Source: a virus
Strand: one strand, 5' to 3'
Virus record (IMG/VR): IMGVR_UViG_3300045988_020061
DNA length: 39,436 nt
Made by a program: the position numbers and the translations under genes. The first letter of the stretch is position 1. Each line of letters begins with the position of its first letter. Below the pieces are notes generated by a model, which searched no databases, had not been told where the DNA came from, and saw only the letters and a program-made list of their open reading frames with translations. Shown piece by piece: positions 2,397 to 9,791 of the stretch.

Positions 2397-2591
2397 TCAG
2401 CCCTCCTCACAGTAAAATCTGGAAATATCATCCATACGCCAGCGAACCGTGTCCGAAATAGTGGAGTATAGGTACCCGCCCTCCATGTGTACGGACTGCA
2501 CACCGTATACCTGCCGCGGATTCGTGAAATGCCCGAATTGCTTTTTCATGTGTTCCTCAACCTCGTCCTTGAAGATAATAGTCAGTTTCAT
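2397..2591 (-). CDS. Hypothetical protein
   Basis: ATG (MKLTIIFKDE...) shares an ATGA overlap with the stop of 2588..3148. Confidence 0.45.
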   Translation of the reverse strand: MKLTIIFKDEVEEHMKKQFGHFTNPRQVYGVQSVHMEGGYLYSTISDTVRWRMDDISRFYCEEG

Positions 2592-3148
2592 TCCATTTCC
2601 TCCACATAGCACCAGCTCTGGGGCGGGCGTTCTAAAAAGCATCCTGAATTTTTGCAATCAGGGCAGTCTTTTTTTGCAAGCCCAAGATCAGCATAAAAAC
2701 AGTCGCGGTTGTTTTTCTTGAACTCTCGTAACTCTCGCGGCTTATCGTAGATTTTCAGGTTGGAGATATGCCAGCCGTAAAGCGGTGTTCCGTGCCCATA
2801 ATCCCATAGTGCCCCATTTTCAAGACAAGTCTGTAATACATAATCATCGTCAATGTCATAGATGCCATACGGTTCGTTTGCTGGGGCAAGTCTATCTATG
2901 CGGTCGCAGGTGAACTCGCCAATGACATTGCCCTTGCGGTCTGCCCACTTGCCGCGGTTCCACTTGGCAACATCACGCCCAAGATCAACTCGAAAAAACT
3001 CGTTACAGCCTTGCAGCGTGCAGTAGATATAGCACTTAAACGGCGTGTTCATCTTCGGGCGCGTCTTGCGCACCTCAATAGTCTTTTCCCCGCTGCAAAT
3101 TTTCTCGCACCACTTCGGGCGGACGCTCAGCATAACAGCCTTACTCAT
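2588..3148 (-). CDS. ASCH (PUA-like) domain protein
   Basis: N-terminus MSKAVMLSVRPKWCEKICSGEKTIEVRKTRPK is the typical ASCH opening. Confidence 0.6.
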   Translation of the reverse strand: MSKAVMLSVRPKWCEKICSGEKTIEVRKTRPKMNTPFKCYIYCTLQGCNEFFRVDLGRDVAKWNRGKWADRKGNVIGEFTCDRIDRLAPANEPYGIYDIDDDYVLQTCLENGALWDYGHGTPLYGWHISNLKIYDKPRELREFKKNNRDCFYADLGLAKKDCPDCKNSGCFLERPPQSWCYVEEME

Positions 3149-3644
3149 TCTTCGTCACCTCCAATGCTTTCTCCGCTTCCTCGCGGGTCAGAAATACGAT
3201 CTTGCCAAATCCGTTTAGCGACACGCCATACTCCCGCCCTCTGGCACCTATTGGCTCAAGGCCAATAAAGCCGATTTCATTGCCCATACCAATCTGCTTG
3301 ACCTCGCACTCTCTTATATGCTTATCCGTGTCCATCAAGGCGAACACCCGCTGTCCCACCTTGCACGGCAGCACCACCAGCCGCCCGTCCCTGTTGGCAT
3401 CGGCCAACTCGCGCAGGCGGTCGATGCCGCCACATTCTCCGATCACCGTGCAAAGTTCGCTCCAATCTTTTTGAAGTGCGGTCACGTACTCCGGCTCCAG
3501 CCCCGTGTCCTCGTATGCAGCGAGGCGTTCAACCAGACGGTCAAACGATGGGCAATCTATGCAACCCATGTCCACATTGCAGCTACCAGAACACTTCATG
3601 TAGTGGTCGGTGCCAAGATAGTGCTTTTCCGTCAGTCGTTCCAT
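3141..3644 (-). CDS. Hypothetical phage protein
   Basis: MERLTEKHY...AAYEDTGLEPE is a recurrent Clostridia-phage N-terminus. The start is set at the MERL ATG. Confidence 0.5.
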   Translation of the reverse strand: MERLTEKHYLGTDHYMKCSGSCNVDMGCIDCPSFDRLVERLAAYEDTGLEPEYVTALQKDWSELCTVIGECGGIDRLRELADANRDGRLVVLPCKVGQRVFALMDTDKHIRECEVKQIGMGNEIGFIGLEPIGARGREYGVSLNGFGKIVFLTREEAEKALEVTKNE

Positions 3645-3775
3645 CACTCCACCTCCCATTTCAGCTCTTCATATAGCTCACTGAACCGCTTGTTCCACTT
3701 CCTTAGCCCGAAGAAACAGTACACGCCCAACACAATCCACAGTCCGCTGGCGATGTCTTGCAACAGATTTTCCAT
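3644..3775 (-). CDS. 43-aa small hydrophobic peptide (absent from the ORF track)
   Basis: MENLLQDIASGLWIVLGVYCFFGLRKWNKRFSELYEELKWEVE. GGAGGTGGAGTG RBS. There are 1-nt TGATG overlaps at both ends, implying translational coupling. Confidence 0.45.
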   Translation of the reverse strand: MENLLQDIASGLWIVLGVYCFFGLRKWNKRFSELYEELKWEVE

Positions 3776-4140
3776 CACTCCACCTCCTGCATCCAATACT
3801 TCTTACGGCAGTCCATGCACATCATTCCCGTTGCGCATGTATCTTCCGGCGTTCTGTATTGTATGGGGTTCATCAGGCACGGCAAAATAGACAGCACGCC
3901 GCGTTCGTCAATCCTTGCCGCGGGCCACCGCGCCAAGAACTCGCTCTGCCGCGTCTTGCGCGGATGCTCCTCCGCCCACTTCTCGACGAGTTTTACCATC
4001 TTCTGCAGTTGATCGACTTCCCCGAAATCTCTCGGGAACACCGACGTAAAGCCGCAAAATTCGTTCGCATCGCATGTGTTGCAAGGCCCTGCATTGTTAC
4101 ACATCCGCTTCGCTTCGCTCAAAAACTTCATCGCATCCAT
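3775..4140 (-). CDS. Hypothetical Cys-rich protein
   Basis: Start set at MDAMKFLSEAKRMCNNAGPCNTCDANEFCGF. The longer ORF's N-terminus is Arg/Cys-rich junk that overlaps the upstream gene. Confidence 0.5.
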   Translation of the reverse strand: MDAMKFLSEAKRMCNNAGPCNTCDANEFCGFTSVFPRDFGEVDQLQKMVKLVEKWAEEHPRKTRQSEFLARWPAARIDERGVLSILPCLMNPIQYRTPEDTCATGMMCMDCRKKYWMQEVE

Positions 4141-4141
4141 A

Positions 4142-4333
4142 TTATTCTCCCTTCTCCAGCATGTCCGCCGCCGCCCGCAGATCATCCGGCAGCATAATTG
4201 GAACATCATAGATATTCGCCTCGGCCCACTCCGCGTATTCGCGCAGCATCGCAATAAGCCCCTCCCGCGTCGGCTTTTCGCCGATCGCGTCAGCCATTGC
4301 GCCCATAAACGTTCGGTCGTCAGTCAGTCCCAT
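4142..4333 (-). CDS. Hypothetical protein
   Basis: ATG (MGLTDDRTF...) preceded by a GGAGG RBS. Confidence 0.45.
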   Translation of the reverse strand: MGLTDDRTFMGAMADAIGEKPTREGLIAMLREYAEWAEANIYDVPIMLPDDLRAAADMLEKGE

Positions 4334-4401: not shown

Positions 4402-6296
4402 TCATTCCTCCCCAAACCACTTTTTCGTCACGGCGATGGGAAACGGCTCGATCTCGCTTGCCCATCGGGCTGTGCCTTTACCGTGTATGCGCTCCCAGCA
4501 AAGCGGGAATCCGCCTATGCCGTCAAACAGGCTCCCCAGCGTTGCCCGTTCCGGCAGATACCGCGCCATACGCCGCAGCATCCAGTCCCAGAAGGGCAGG
4601 GCGATGGAGTTGCCCAGCGCCTTGTAGCGCGGGCTGTCGCTGGGCTTGTGACGTTTTCCCTTGCCGTCTATCCACTCGCCGATGTCGGTCCATCGGTCCG
4701 GAAAACCTTGCAGCCGTTCACATTCCATCGGCGTCAGGCGGCGCACGACCATGTTCTGCCGGACTGTATTATTCAAGTTCAGGCTTTGCCCGCCGCCTTC
4801 TTTTGCTTGTAGCGTACCGTTTATCTCTCCACCCTCTCGGAAATTGCGGAAGTCTACGGCGCACACAAGGTCTGTGCTGTCCTTAAAGTCCCGTTGCTTG
4901 CAACTGCTTGCAACCTCGGCGGCGCGGTAATCTCCAAAACCATTCATCTGGTATGTAAGCGGCACTTGGTTTCCGCCCGTGCCCATTCTCGCCTGCAATG
5001 CTGGGACTTGCTCCCCGCACTCGCGGATGACGTCACAGGCGTGTGTCATGTCCAGCGCCACCACCGCGGGCTTATTCCCGCCGCACTCGGCGTTCAGTGT
5101 AGGAGACAGTTCCTCTTGATAGCCGATGCTCCGCGCCTGTTCACTATTGCCCAGCTTAAACCCGGCGCACAGTACGCTGTCCCGTGCCATTCCGCCGTTT
5201 TCATTGGCATTCAAACTGTGCCATGCGCCATCCTGATCGTACACCCTTGCACTCTGTGCATCCCAAGGATTCATACACATTACCCCGTGGCGGTCGCCGG
5301 CGGTCAGCGTGGGGGATGGGTCGCCTTCTTTGCCGATGCCAAGACCGTTGCCGCTGCCATCGTGGTTGCGGCTCTCTCCGCCGCCCTGCCATCTGGTGGC
5401 TTTGTCGTTGATGGGGATAGCCGTTGCAAATACGCCATGCGAATGTGCGGCAGAAATGGTGTTCGCCGGGTCACCCGGTTCTCCTACGCCAAATCCTGTT
5501 CCGCGACCTAACGCTTTGCAGCGCGTAGCCACCATCAGGTTAATAGGCGTGGGCGTGAAAATCGTCTGATCGTTGCCCGTACCAAGCGTTCCGCTTTTCT
5601 CCGTCTGCACTAAAGCGCCTTTTCCTCCTCCGTCACAGCCCCCCCCTGATGCGGACTGCATAAGAAGCACCGCTTTCAGCCGCTCCGGCAGATCCTTCCC
5701 CCGCCGCTCCGCTCTCCGCAAAATGCCCTGACACGCTTTCGCGGTCAAATTGTATTTGGGCAGCGGATTCACCTCCAAAATCTGCGACAACCGAGATTCT
5801 TCGGCGACGCTGTGGGGTCCCCAGACGGATAACATTTCCTGTACGGCTGTCTCGGATGGTTTTTCCCCAGTCCTTAGCGTCGTGAGTTCGCCAGGCGATA
5901 GACCACCCATCACCGTCGATGGCTCCTGCTTTTGTCCATTTCCACTTTTCCGGCAGTCCAGATAGAGAAAATCCTGGTTCTGCGATACGCGCAATTTCTT
6001 CCAGCACGGCGTGGAAGTCTTTTCCTCTGTTGCTGCTGAATGCTCCGACAACGTTCTCCCAAACGAGAAACCGAGGTCGGACCATGTTACCTGTCCGTCC
6101 ATTCCGTTTGTCCGCCTCCCTCATTTCTTTTACGATGCGCACCTGCTCCATAAACAAGCCGCTTCGCGCTCCCGCTAAACCGGCGCGTTTCCCAGCGATG
6201 GACAGATCCTGTCTAACAAGGTGAACCACCTGTAATACACCAAATGGGTTCAATCTCTGCCCCATTAATTTTCGTAATATCGCCTAAATGTTTCAC
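4402..6296 (-). pseudogene. C5 cytosine DNA methyltransferase, circularly permuted and split over three reading frames
   Basis: GGAGGTGA RBS plus GTG at 6296 opens MKHLGDITKINGAEIEPIWCITGGSPC, followed by TAG. A frame shifted by 4 nt continues QDLSIAGKRAGL (motif IV), ENV (VI) and PQRRRR (VIII). A third frame carries GGGKGALVQ, RRLTPMECERLQGFPD (IX) and YKALGNSIALP (X). That frame then runs in frame into TLGSLFDGIGGFPL...ASEIEPFPIAV (motifs I-II). Confidence 0.75.
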
Positions 6297-6308
6297 CTAA
6301 ATCACCTC

Positions 6309-6584
6309 CTAATCTCCAAACACAACGCCGCACTCGTCCTTCAGCACGTCCTTGATGTGCTTCCGCTTGATGCGGCCTTCGTTGATCTCCTGTGTGATCT
6401 TCTCAAGACATTTGTACAGGTACGCAATACTGTGGGTGTCGCGGCTGTCAAGCGTCTCCTCCTGGACGTGCCAGCCGCACTTGTCGATCAGTGCCATCGC
6501 CACCATGTCCATGCACTCCTGCGTGCCTCTGCGCTTGCCGTCCATAAAAATCCGGTCGTCCCGGCTCAAATGCTGCTTGCCCAT
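6309..6584 (-). CDS. Hypothetical protein, paralog of 610..903
   Basis: See 610..903. Its stop TAG overlaps the RBS of the methyltransferase. Confidence 0.6.
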   Translation of the reverse strand: MGKQHLSRDDRIFMDGKRRGTQECMDMVAMALIDKCGWHVQEETLDSRDTHSIAYLYKCLEKITQEINEGRIKRKHIKDVLKDECGVVFGD

Positions 6585-6585
6585 G

Positions 6586-7659
6586 TCAATACCTCACCCC
6601 TATGTAGTCCAGCACCCGCGCATAGCCAAGGCCGTCTTTCGTGGGCTTCCACAGCCCGTCCGTGTCAAATGCCCCGCCGCCGATGCAGAACGCATAGTGC
6701 TTCGGGTGCGTCAGTTTCATGCGTTCAAAACGATTCTCGTTCTTTTCGAGGTGCGCACCGAACGCGCAGAACATACATCCGGTTCTCTGACAGCCCGTAC
6801 AGTGCAGTTTGCAGTCGATCAGCGTTGCGCCGTAGTCGTTCTCGCCGTCGCTGGCCACAATGTCACCGTAGACGCTTGCGTAGGGTAGCCCACGAGCCAC
6901 GATAAACCGCAGTACATCCTGCTCCGTCCAAAAGCTCATGGGCTTTCCCATCGGTCGCTTGCCCTCAAAGGCGTTGCAGCCGCTTTTCATCCAATATGTC
7001 ATGCGAAGTCTGCTTTCCTCAGCCATCGTCGCTGTTGTAGCCTGCTGCCCGGTTTTGTGTGCGTAGGTTTTCAGCGGTGACTTTTTCATAATGGCGCAGC
7101 ACTTCGCGGATATATGGAACGGTGCGTACAGCAGAAATTCCCACTTTTCGCAGTTGTAGGCAGACGGTTGTCCATCATTCCTCACAGCCTCCCCGCGCAG
7201 CCGCTTCATTCGTAGGGAGTTTGGGTTGCGCCTTGCGGCAGTAATACAGTCGGCCACCTCTTTGCTCACAATGCTGTACCCGTACTTCGTCACAACCTGC
7301 CGGATGTTCATCTTCGGACGCAGGCGTACAAGGTTGACAGTCACGCGGGGAAACTCCCCCCGCAGCCACGCGGCGTACTCGTTCACGAACTTCTGTATCT
7401 CCGGATATTCCAGCCCCGTATTCACAAACACCAGGTTCAGCTCCCACGGCGGCGTCCTGAAACTCGCCAAATACCGCGCCGCCAAGTACGCCAGCACTGT
7501 GCTGTCCTTGCCACCGGAAAAGCTGACATAGCACCTCCCGCCCCATGCGGTGTACCACTCGTCCAGTTTTTCGTAAGTCAATATCTCCTTGTCCTGCGCG
7601 TCCAGCGCCATGAGCTTTTTTGCCGCATCCCGCGTCAGAGGCGTATTTATCGGCACCAT
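6586..7659 (-). CDS. PAPS reductase / DndC-like ATP-pyrophosphatase family protein
   Basis: SFSGGKDS P-loop motif and a C-terminal Cys cluster CTGCQRTGCMFCAFG. ATG at 7659 overlaps the upstream TGA. Confidence 0.8.
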   Translation of the reverse strand: MVPINTPLTRDAAKKLMALDAQDKEILTYEKLDEWYTAWGGRCYVSFSGGKDSTVLAYLAARYLASFRTPPWELNLVFVNTGLEYPEIQKFVNEYAAWLRGEFPRVTVNLVRLRPKMNIRQVVTKYGYSIVSKEVADCITAARRNPNSLRMKRLRGEAVRNDGQPSAYNCEKWEFLLYAPFHISAKCCAIMKKSPLKTYAHKTGQQATTATMAEESRLRMTYWMKSGCNAFEGKRPMGKPMSFWTEQDVLRFIVARGLPYASVYGDIVASDGENDYGATLIDCKLHCTGCQRTGCMFCAFGAHLEKNENRFERMKLTHPKHYAFCIGGGAFDTDGLWKPTKDGLGYARVLDYIGVRY

Positions 7660-7847
7660 CACTCGCCCTCCTCCAATCTCACCACCTCATAGCAGCCGTA
7701 TCTGCCGCCGTTGCGGAACGCCTTCCGAATCGCAAAACGAACATTCTGATACTTCCGCCCGGACAGCCGCGCCAACTCCGCCGTGGTCGTACCCCACCAA
7801 CGGGGCAGGCGGTACTTGTCCCGCGTCACGATCATGTACACGGTCAT
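7659..7847 (-). CDS. Hypothetical small protein
   Basis: ATG (MTVYMIVTRDKYRLP) lies 5 nt after GGGAGGTG. Confidence 0.5.
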   Translation of the reverse strand: MTVYMIVTRDKYRLPRWWGTTTAELARLSGRKYQNVRFAIRKAFRNGGRYGCYEVVRLEEGE

Positions 7848-7849
7848 CC

Positions 7850-8284
7850 TCACACCTCCCGGATGGCGAATCCGTACCGGCTGCGAAACAGCTTCGCTTT
7901 CATGGCATACTCGCGTGTCCGCATCCCTTTCACGTCCTCCACCACCGGGAGCCAGTACCGCTGGCCGTAGCTGTCAGAAGCCGTTCTGCGCTCGTACACG
8001 AAGTCCGCAACGTAGTCGATACTTTTCACGCGGTCGCCCTCAAACGTCGTGTACGCCTCTTGCAAGCAGTACCGCACCTGCAATTTTAGCCCCCGTATCT
8101 CCCCGGCCTTTTGCAGTAGCATCAGCGCGTCGTATCGCTCCGCCTCCTTCTTGCTGTCAAAGGTCAGCTTGCCGCGCCTCGTCTTCTGTGCCTTGTACTT
8201 TCCCGGCTTCTGCATCTTCTCCATGACCTCCATGACCTGCTTCTGCGCCGCAGGCGCCAGCCGCATCAGATCATCGATGTTCAT
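7850..8284 (-). CDS. DUF1064 domain protein (nuclease-fold phage protein)
   Basis: FDSKKEAERYDALMLLQKAGEIRGLKLQ...YVADFVY...VEDVKG follows the DUF1064 pattern. Confidence 0.7.
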   Translation of the reverse strand: MNIDDLMRLAPAAQKQVMEVMEKMQKPGKYKAQKTRRGKLTFDSKKEAERYDALMLLQKAGEIRGLKLQVRYCLQEAYTTFEGDRVKSIDYVADFVYERRTASDSYGQRYWLPVVEDVKGMRTREYAMKAKLFRSRYGFAIREV

Positions 8285-8486
8285 CCAGCAACCCTCTTTC
8301 CTCCAGTCCGCGTTTGCTCATGGTGTAGCGCTTGATCGTCGTCAGTTTCTGCTCTTTCCCGCAGCGCTGGCACACGCCCTGCGCCCAACCGTAAAACGCT
8401 GGCTCGATGATGTAGTCCGCCGCCATCTCCTGCAAGCAATCCACGCACAGCCTGCCGGACGCGATCTTCCATACGCCGTCGTTCAT
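8271..8486 (-). CDS. Hypothetical zinc-ribbon-like protein
   Basis: CVDC...CQRC pairs. The ATGA overlaps the stop of the DnaC-like gene. Confidence 0.45.
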   Translation of the reverse strand: MNDGVWKIASGRLCVDCLQEMAADYIIEPAFYGWAQGVCQRCGKEQKLTTIKRYTMSKRGLEERGLLDEHR

Positions 8487-9178
8487 CTCAGCCTCCAATT
8501 CTGCTTTTTCCCGATGTTCAGCATATAATTCCGCGCCCGCTGGTTGATTCTGCTACCAATCGCCTCGTCCCAGCTCAAAATGCGGTCAATGGTCAGCTCC
8601 GTGGAGATGATCGTGATTGCATCTGGGGCAATGTACCGGGCATTCAGCAGGTCAAAGGCAATGTTTTTGTCGGCATCCGTTACGCTGCCCTTCAAAAAAT
8701 CGTCGATATACAGTGCACGGACGGTTTTCAGCGGGTGCATAGCTTCGGCGTATGCTTCCGCATCGTTCGCCTTTGCCTTGATTGCTGGAATATCTCCCCT
8801 CCATTGCACGTACCGCACAGGGATTCCGCCGTCCATCAGTTTGGCGCAAATCGCCGTACACAGGTGGGTTTTCCCAGTGCCGGGAGAGCCGCCGATGAAA
8901 AACCAATTGCCTTTCCAGTCTGTCAAATACTTCTCCGCCGCCTGCTTTGCGGCCTGTTGCCAATATTCCCGCGTTTGGAATGCATCGAATGTGCAGCTGT
9001 CCAGCAGCCCGGCCAGCCCGGAACGCTCCATGCGCAGCCTGTTTTGTCGGACGATCTCGCATTTGCAGGTTCTGCTCACCAGTTCGCCGCTTTCAGTGCG
9101 GCGGACGGTGTAGCCCAGCCCGCCGCAGATGTCACAGCCATGTTCCGACATGGTATTCTTGCTTTGTTGTCTGTTCAC
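8483..9178 (-). CDS. DnaC/IstB-like AAA+ helicase loader
   Basis: Walker A GSPGTGKTHL, Walker B LYIDDF, and an N-terminal Cys4. GTG start lies 6 nt after AAGGAGG. Confidence 0.85.
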   Translation of the reverse strand: MNRQQSKNTMSEHGCDICGGLGYTVRRTESGELVSRTCKCEIVRQNRLRMERSGLAGLLDSCTFDAFQTREYWQQAAKQAAEKYLTDWKGNWFFIGGSPGTGKTHLCTAICAKLMDGGIPVRYVQWRGDIPAIKAKANDAEAYAEAMHPLKTVRALYIDDFLKGSVTDADKNIAFDLLNARYIAPDAITIISTELTIDRILSWDEAIGSRINQRARNYMLNIGKKQNWRLR

Positions 9179-9791
9179 CGTGTTCCTCCTTCCACCTCGT
9201 CTCCCAATTCCGCACGGCGGCTTTCCAGTCCTTCATGCGGTTCTTGCCTACCATCCAGCCCTTTTGCTCGTAAAAGGCGACAAAGCGATCTGCGTTGACG
9301 TGATAGCCCTGCGCCTGAACATAAGCGGATACATCATCAGCGGATGGTGGTGTGAAGCGCTTCGCGCACGTATCACTCACACCGTTAGGTGGGAGTGTAT
9401 TATCTTTGGTTTTATCTTTGGTTTTGTCTTTGGTTTTGTCTTTGGTTTTGTCTTTGGTTTTGTCTTTGGTTTGGCACGTTTCGCATGCGGTCGCATCCGT
9501 TCGCATACCATCGCATGCGGTCGCATCCGTTCGCATACCATCATGACGTGCATATCGCTTTTCTGCGTTGCGCTGGTTCTTCGCGCATCTCTCGTCATAC
9601 GCCGCTTTCGCCCTATTTATATCGTCCGCAATGAAATCGAATGCGATCGACTCCCGTCCCGTAAGTTCCTCCGTCTCTCCGGTCTCGCCATATTCCAGCA
9701 AAGCCCGTACAAGCCGACCTACCTCTTGATCTGAGAGTTTCTCTAGTTTCTTGCGATAACTGAAATAAAAGGGAATGTACTCAAGAGCCAC
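9132..9791 (-). CDS. Replication organiser / initiator-like protein (DUF6291-like N-terminus, DnaD-like C-terminus) containing internal repeats
   Basis: N-terminus ALEYIPFYFSYRKKLEKLSDQEVGRLVRALLEY. C-terminus FTPPSADDVSAYVQ...KDWKAAVRNWE. The central region encodes (KDKT)x6 and (DGMRTDATAC)x2. Confidence 0.65.
   Translation of the reverse strand: MALEYIPFYFSYRKKLEKLSDQEVGRLVRALLEYGETGETEELTGRESIAFDFIADDINRAKAAYDERCAKNQRNAEKRYARHDGMRTDATACDGMRTDATACETCQTKDKTKDKTKDKTKDKTKDKTKDNTLPPNGVSDTCAKRFTPPSADDVSAYVQAQGYHVNADRFVAFYEQKGWMVGKNRMKDWKAAVRNWETRWKEEHGEQTTKQEYHVGTWL
9402..9473. repeat. Six tandem 12-nt repeats (A/G)TCTTTGGTTTT
   Basis: Counted directly in the sequence. They lie inside the replication organiser gene. 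Confidence 0.95.
9481..9540. repeat. Two perfect tandem 30-nt repeats, each made of three 10-nt TCGCATnnnn units
   Basis: tcgcatgcggtcgcatccgttcgcatacca occurs twice. TCGCAT therefore recurs six times with a 10-nt period. Confidence 0.95.

Follow-up and report, generated by a model that had tools for sequence, protein, structure and literature searches.

The 39,436-nucleotide viral sequence IMGVR_UViG_3300045988_020061 (the window, by which the whole stretch of DNA analysed here is meant) carries on its minus strand, between positions 6296 and 4402, the gene of a predicted C5-cytosine DNA methyltransferase whose conserved motifs stand in a circularly permuted order. Motifs III, IV, VI and VIII come first, followed by a long variable region, motifs IX and X, and, at the end, motifs I and II. 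The C5 signatures I (FxGxG), II, VI (ENV), VIII (QxRxR), IX and X are all present. An earlier note on this DNA had described a gene of this order, opened by a Shine-Dalgarno-like sequence and a GTG codon; both of these elements are confirmed on reading the sequence, and the motifs lie on the minus strand in the places and order claimed. The same note took the locus for a single in-frame gene. Motif X does run in frame into motifs I and II, but the region as a whole is broken into three reading frames (A, B and C; Table 1). Also missed was an open reading frame (ORF) embedded in the +1 frame, and the two interruptions (a stop after the catalytic cysteine and a shift at a poly-G run) had been underplayed. 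The reading preferred here, with a probability of about 0.78, is that the locus belongs to a natural family of circularly permuted orphan C5 enzymes, and that the window copy is interrupted by a TAGA insertion, is in a two-ORF state created by a run of eight G residues (G8), and contains a conserved embedded ORF.

The three frames together span the locus, and no single ORF does so. In the window, the catalytic Pro-Cys is not continuous with the remainder of the catalytic loop, as GGSPC is followed by a TAG stop and a +1 shift; in intact relatives, the GGSPC residues run on into QDLSIAG. The closest intact relative, locus L009, which encodes the protein P0121, is 93.7% identical to the window at the nucleotide level, and the only differences from it that break the frame are the TAGA insertion and one extra G in the poly-G run. 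The frame-repaired protein scores 98.3 bits against the profile PF00145 (gathering cut-off, 22 bits), with a match that begins at profile column 46, and the unrepaired single frames score 37.8 and 34.7 bits. Reading the TAG as a sense codon was considered and rejected, because the frame beyond it is nonsense.

Table 1. Features of the permuted methyltransferase locus in the window, and positions of the embedded ORF in other loci.
Feature	Position	Strand	Remarks
Shine-Dalgarno-like GGAGGTGA	6309-6302	minus	read from the sequence; 5 nucleotides upstream of the GTG
Start codon GTG of the new N-terminus	6296	minus
Frame A mini-ORF	6213-6296	minus	27 codons, VKHLGDITK...GGSPC, then TAG
Motif III, GDITK	6284-6270	minus	frame A
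Motif IV, GGSPC (catalytic PC)	6230-6216	minus	frame A
TAG stop of frame A	6215-6213	minus	abuts the catalytic Cys codon
TAGA, 4-nucleotide insertion in motif IV	6212-6215	minus	between Cys codon TGT and Gln codon CAG; from alignment with L001 and L009
Frame B, alpha-type part	5633-6211	minus	QDLSIAG, VI, VIII and linker ending RIRGGL*; PF00145 columns 72-131
Rest of motif IV, QDLSIAG	6211-6191	minus	frame B
Motif VI, WENV	6061-6050	minus	frame B
Motif VIII, PQRRRR	5815-5798	minus	frame B
Stop of frame B	5635-5633	minus
G8 homopolymer	5639-5646	minus	second +1 shift
Embedded +1-frame ORF	5633-6102	minus	ATG at 6102; over motifs VI-VIII of frame B
Conserved helical domain LSQILE..KYNLTAKACQGILRRAERRGKDLPERLKAVL	5790-5665	minus	part of the embedded ORF
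Frame C ORF, beta-type	4402-6102	minus	566 residues: N-terminus of the embedded ORF, long variable/target-recognition region, IX, X, I, II
Motif IX, RRLTPMECERLQGFPD	4743-4696	minus	frame C
Motif X, YKALGNSIALP	4626-4594	minus	frame C
Connector from the end of the YKALGNSIALP block to LFDGIGG		minus	frame C; about 21 residues
Motif I, LFDGIGG	4530-4510	minus	frame C
Motif II, ASEIEPFP	4461-4438	minus	frame C
Stop of frame C	4404-4402	minus
Embedded ORF in L169 (P1 dmt; about 66,713-67,201 of NC_005856)	1983-2471
Embedded ORF in L007	2814-3209
Embedded ORF in L001	2598-3020
Embedded ORF in L170	around 1501-1734

The break point was located by de-permutation, in which the C-terminal 46 residues were joined to the N-terminus and the product was compared with canonical enzymes. 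The de-permuted sequence aligned with canonical phage enzymes in one piece (60-66% identity, and 54-66% across the canonical relatives that are continuous at the junction), matched PF00145 columns 4-131 in one stretch, and required a single one-residue gap at the junction when set against Streptococcus phage Javan191 (VTKKWFGEEVKHLGD versus VTTKRM-PEVKHLGD). This alignment places the break between motifs II and III, without loss or duplication, and so bears out the earlier claim that the break point is exact. As that note had anticipated, the N-terminal profile columns (4-45) are encoded at the C-terminus, which departs from the canonical linear order I to X. The order also differs from that of M.BssHII (Type H), since motifs IX and X come after VIII and before I and II, and from that of the DRM enzymes, since motifs III to V are N-terminal together with VI to VIII; the view that the break is unlike that of M.BssHII, which lies in the variable region, or that of DRM was therefore correct. 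On this alignment evidence the permutation is real.

The permuted order recurs widely in related phages. It was found in all 120 of the best 120 protein clusters retrieved with the repaired window protein, with motif IV at about residue 25 and 40-60 residues separating motif I from the C-terminus, and in 118 of the best 120 clusters retrieved with MT836051, a relative of 45% identity. All 80 IMG/VR loci have motifs III to X followed by I and II, and motifs X and I share a frame, with a spacing of 90 nucleotides, wherever both were located (about 76 of the 80; the remaining loci are cut by contig ends or were missed by the search pattern). The X-to-I junction is held by about 18 GTDB species genomes, mostly metagenome-assembled genomes of Oscillospiraceae or other Clostridia, and the cultured Faecalibacterium phage FP_Toutatis has the permuted order too. 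Many members are intact single-ORF proteins of 590-630 residues; P0121 is an intact protein of 630 residues that is 95% identical to the window protein, and MT836051 (locus L001) has an intact 591-residue ORF at 2414-4189 in the permuted order. The catalytic and SAM (S-adenosylmethionine)-binding residues are invariant over 36 diverse members, and for this reason the intact permuted members are predicted to be active enzymes. Judged by its sequences, the family consists of orphan C5-cytosine DNA methyltransferases of phages and prophages in gut Clostridia (Oscillospirales-type hosts); it is large, previously unremarked, and relevant to methyltransferase specialists. In FP_Toutatis (L006, NC_047915 6463-7874), the two genes gp14 and gp15, annotated “DNA methyltransferase”, correspond to one permuted enzyme broken by a frameshift, and gp14 mixes sequence from the main frame with sequence from the embedded-ORF frame.

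The closest precedent for this topology is artificial. Albert et al. (2018) built ten permutation types from M.MpeI and M.SssI; by far the most active, with activity comparable to wild type, was “Type B”, in which the new N-terminus falls between motifs II and III, and this type was absent from 20,677 REBASE entries (PMC5944983). The natural permutants M.BssHII, M.Alw26I, M2.Eco31I, M.Esp3I and M2.BsaI, together with 22 others in REBASE, all have breaks in the variable region (PMC5944983). No later report of a natural II/III permutant was found in open-access text. By motif order, the permuted phage family is a natural occurrence of the Type B topology: as in the engineered proteins, the chain begins between motifs II and III, the native termini are joined to each other directly, and motifs III to X are followed by I and II. 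Unlike those laboratory constructs, which derive from CG-specific Mollicutes enzymes, the family in the window is natural and phage-borne, its proteins are 590-700 residues long with a very long variable region, and its enzymatic role is predicted from sequence. The five named Type H enzymes are likewise circularly permuted C5 methyltransferases with a presumed origin by duplication and trimming; however, their break lies in the variable region, motifs IX and X precede I to VIII, and both structural domains are left intact, whereas the break in the window family falls within the half of the Rossmann fold that binds SAM. Plant DRM2 (motif order VI-X, then I-V) is also a natural C5 enzyme with rearranged motifs, but it is eukaryotic and has another break point. 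The canonical phage orphan enzymes (e.g., Javan191 QBX15552 and the N-terminal C5 domain of P1 Dmt) are 54-66% identical to the window family over motifs I to VIII and share with it the PQRRRR..ILFE signature and the embedded +1 ORF, but they keep the order I to X, with motifs I and II at the N-terminus.

The embedded ORF is, by its pattern of conservation, a real and separately selected coding sequence, and its translation is predicted. It is always in the +1 frame, and its open length in phages of Firmicutes, Actinobacteria, and Proteobacteria is 135-180 codons. Gene callers report it in more than 1000 clusters as a hypothetical protein of 150-190 residues. It lies within the annotated methyltransferase coding sequence of E. 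coli phage P1 (dmt), Mycobacterium phage Omega, and Vibrio phage CP-T1, and likewise in Akkermansia phage Chantilly, Pseudomonas phage zjk6, and Streptococcus phage Javan191. The inspected phage records that call the enzyme as a single gene (e.g., P1, Javan191, CP-T1) leave it unannotated, and no published ORF inside P1 dmt was found in open-access text. The C-terminal block of the product has the consensus LSQ[IV]LE..KY[YF]LS.KAC.GILRRA..RGK.LP..L..AL, and among distant phages its mean pairwise identity is 61%, versus 38% for the main frame encoded by the same nucleotides. Within the permuted family, the third positions of main-frame codons in this block are the least variable (0.06-0.07) and the first positions the most variable (0.28-0.30), and third-position diversity in the alternative frame is 0.30; the reversal of codon-position diversity therefore points to the alternative frame as the selected one. 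The reversed pattern holds in fused-state genes alone and is limited to the C-terminal 45 codons. The N-terminal 100 codons show no independent constraint, and the corresponding residues look disordered; AlphaFold2 gave a confident model, which is helical, for residues 105-152 only. The embedded ORF had no match in Pfam, in a Foldseek comparison with the PDB, or in a profile search of PDB sequences, and against PHROGs it had only a weak match to phrog_16143. Most members from Firmicutes phages have a Shine-Dalgarno-like motif 8-12 nucleotides upstream of the ATG. The product may serve the methyltransferase as a subunit or regulate it; the most economical idea is that it would be a subunit, or the N-terminal module, of the target-recognition half of the enzyme.

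Frames B and C meet at the poly-G run, which is 170 nucleotides past motif VIII, or 240 in a longer variant. The form AG7C keeps the enzyme in one frame; with AG8C, a +1 shift, frame B terminates and the downstream half becomes continuous with the embedded ORF. Among 56 loci scored at the run, 35 are in frame, 20 are +1, and one is +2, and classification of 75 loci by the frames of their motifs gives 53, 21, and one, respectively. The +1 state is reached by way of AG8C, G5, CG9T, or an interrupted CG4TG3C, and by another indel in the long variant. Runs of G5, G7, G8, and G9 occur at the one site and each agrees with the frame state, as in a homopolymer-contingency trait. Some G8 alleles, such as L067 and L083, are free of TAGA. 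The motifs of the window copy are divided after VIII, and frames B and C overlap by about 470 nucleotides. A two-ORF layout is also found in canonical relatives from bacterial genomes (L152 and L133), and the Sellimonas catena copy (L140) is fused. A profile of the embedded ORF matches 4153 representative clusters, and many proteins of 300-700 residues begin with this domain. Because the +1 state is reached by several routes, the two-ORF layout exists in canonical relatives, and many longer proteins start with the domain, the G8 state is on balance better regarded as the split (alpha/beta) architecture of the enzyme family than as damage. In Mycobacterium phage Omega (L170), a canonical relative is annotated as two adjacent methyltransferase genes (gp127/gp128) split after motif VIII, which may be an instance of this architecture.

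Two-chain C5 enzymes have precedents. M.EcoHK31I is a heterodimer whose beta subunit is encoded within the alpha gene in another frame (PMC2836561), and M.AquI is cited as an alpha/beta enzyme split between motif VIII and the target-recognition domain (refs 45-46 of PMC5944983). The window family resembles them, as far as its sequences tell, in having a second polypeptide from an alternative frame that overlaps the methyltransferase gene and in being split after motif VIII. It differs from M.EcoHK31I in that motif IX, supplied there by the beta subunit, stays in the main or beta frame, and from both enzymes in that the embedded ORF supplies another, helical domain (LSQILE..KY.LS.KAC.GILRRA), the overlap is about 470 nucleotides long, and close relatives toggle between the fused and the split state.

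The other interruption, TAGA, creates a stop and a +1 shift inside motif IV. It is present in 33 of the 75 classified loci, including L002 and L003, and motif IV is intact in the other 42. TAGA is always found on one haplotype, CCT TGT TAG A/C CAG; intact alleles have CCG or CCC with TGT or TGC. Nucleotide diversity in the TAGA group is 0.016 in the 100 nucleotides upstream and 0.042 in the 100 nucleotides downstream, with a return to background at 300-400 nucleotides, and among intact alleles it is 0.27 and 0.17 in the same two intervals. From this diversity valley, TAGA is judged to be a young allele that recombination has carried into diverse backgrounds. It is probably a null mutation of the catalytic loop, and the window copy is probably catalytically dead owing to it; that TAGA is not null is improbable. 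No plausible recoding signal was found at the TAGA site, and a programmed +1 or -2 shift there was judged unlikely, there being no slippery site. The valley itself (centred on 6215-6212, about 300 nucleotides on each side; loci L013-L086) is suggestive of either homing-like gene conversion or a recent sweep. Homing-endonuclease genes stand beside canonical relatives, upstream in Javan191 and downstream in Omega.

These features can be combined into one proposed account. In canonical C5 enzymes the N- and C-termini are adjacent, and the SAM pocket is built from motifs I, II, III, and X. A permuted chain could for this reason rebuild the same Rossmann fold, with strands 1 and 2 supplied from the C-terminal end; such rebuilding is supported by the wild-type level of activity of the engineered Type B permutants (PMC5944983). 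The permuted order likely arose when a tandem duplication in frame was later trimmed at its two ends. In the window copy, TAGA directly after the catalytic Cys codon would end translation and shift the frame, most likely abolishing methyl transfer, and the allele would be spreading among relatives by recombination. Expansion of the run from G7 to G8 would yield the two-ORF state, in which the first ORF holds motifs III to VIII and the second, overlapping +1 ORF fuses the conserved N-terminal domain to the variable region and motifs IX, X, I, and II. The two-ORF state matches a split arrangement that is common throughout the wider family and that, taken alone, probably leaves the enzyme functional.

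Several observations weigh against this account. The AlphaFold2 model of P0121, made from a 36-sequence alignment, had a mean confidence (pLDDT) of 35.6, too poor for a fold check or search, and for this reason the fold of the permutant is proposed by analogy. Shared ancestry or a mutational bias of G runs may account for part of the surplus of +1 over +2 states. Other frameshifted variants exist, including that of FP_Toutatis, and plain recurrent decay of a dispensable gene is also plausible. The ratio of nonsynonymous to synonymous polymorphism (pN/pS) downstream of TAGA is 0.11-0.20, which could mean that selection persists; recombination explains this equally well, and the low ratio is uninformative because the TAGA haplotype is young and recombining.

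Carried to its end, the argument from decay would make the whole locus a pseudogene in which both shifts are random damage, the 566-residue ORF is open by chance, and conservation in the main frame has produced the embedded ORF as a side effect. The stop after the catalytic Cys and the second shift in the window copy fit such an explanation, as do the assorted frameshifts of many relatives and an extra in-frame stop in L013. Yet most members of the permuted family are intact, the second shift lands in +1 in 20 of 21 cases by several routes, the two-ORF state is common in canonical relatives, and the LSQILE..GILRRA block is better conserved in the alternative than in the main frame from phage P1 to gut phages. 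Wholesale decay is thus unlikely. That the window gene still works, with TAGA bypassed by reinitiation or recoded to ..GGSPC-R-QDLS.. through a +1 shift at UGU UAG A, is less probable again. The frequency of TAGA, the long open downstream frame kept by 21 of the 33 copies, the low downstream pN/pS, and a stop codon occupying the A site, which classically favours +1 frameshifting, would all suit recoding. However, the P-site codon is not slippery, as tRNA-Cys cannot re-pair from UGU to GUU; the Shine-Dalgarno-like GGTGG is 7 nucleotides upstream rather than about 3; and the product would gain an extra residue within the invariant PCQ motif. Reinitiation at the only nearby in-frame start of frame B, GTG 6229, would yield a product that lacks the catalytic Cys. 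The diversity valley marks a young allele, and because that allele is also recombining, most copies can be open downstream with no need of continued function or selection. A local duplication relic is excluded. So are an assembly chimera and a separate downstream gene for motifs I and II, since the same in-frame junction with its fixed spacing recurs in the 80 independent IMG/VR loci, in hundreds of protein clusters (JGI, ENA, Logan, NCBI), and in cultured FP_Toutatis, and neither a stop nor a start lies between motif X and motif I; of the two possibilities raised by the earlier note, a new permuted architecture or the relic of a tandem duplication, the former holds.

Beyond the preferred reading of a permuted family with an interrupted window copy, a more speculative extension can be put forward tentatively. 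The P1-Dmt/Javan-type phage C5 methyltransferases, including the permuted branch, might all be multi-part enzymes in which the embedded +1 gene provides a required subunit or domain (LSQILE..GILRRA). Short G runs or indels would then switch the locus back and forth between a fused enzyme, made as one chain with a small protein beside it, and a split alpha-plus-beta enzyme; the permuted branch would show that the SAM-binding strands can sit on the beta chain, and TAGA would be a positively selected off-switch spread by recombination.

The family provides a natural counterpart of the sole engineered topology that matches wild type and had been reported missing from nature. The published explanation for the natural absence of Type B is a lower affinity for SAM (PMC5944983), which can now be tested on natural enzymes. 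Permutation, probably by duplication in this family, can evidently cut inside the cofactor-binding half of a Rossmann fold, whereas known natural cases cut between domains only. Permuted proteins are abundant in human-gut phages and are annotated generically as “cytosine specific methyltransferase” or fragmented by gene callers, which affects the interpretation of methylomes and host range. P1 and other well-studied phages have the embedded +1 ORF within an annotated methyltransferase gene, which opens it to genetic tests in those phages.

Further variation was seen among family members. Three proteins (P0176, P0189, and P0220) have an intein of about 340 residues, with Hint and LAGLIDADG domains, in motif VI between WENV and GAFSS, and the first extein residue after the intein is Cys. 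Directly before motif VIII (about 5856-5818 in the window) is a 13-residue insertion (KTIRDSRTGNVIR..), which is a 39-nucleotide presence/absence polymorphism among relatives and does not occur in canonical enzymes. A prophage copy on a 336-kb contig (L005, 3661-5316) reads GGSSCQ for GGSPCQ, replacing the Pro of the catalytic dipeptide with Ser, and has no obvious ATG start. A protein with a PAPS-reductase domain (PF01507), encoded at 6586-7662 on the minus strand of the window, is a recurrent neighbour of the methyltransferase (also in L004 and L005), and in L005 a Dam-like gene lies between the two. Other neighbours in the window are a DUF1064 protein (7850-8284), a DnaC/IstB-like ATPase (8483-9178), and a DUF6291 protein (9132-9791).

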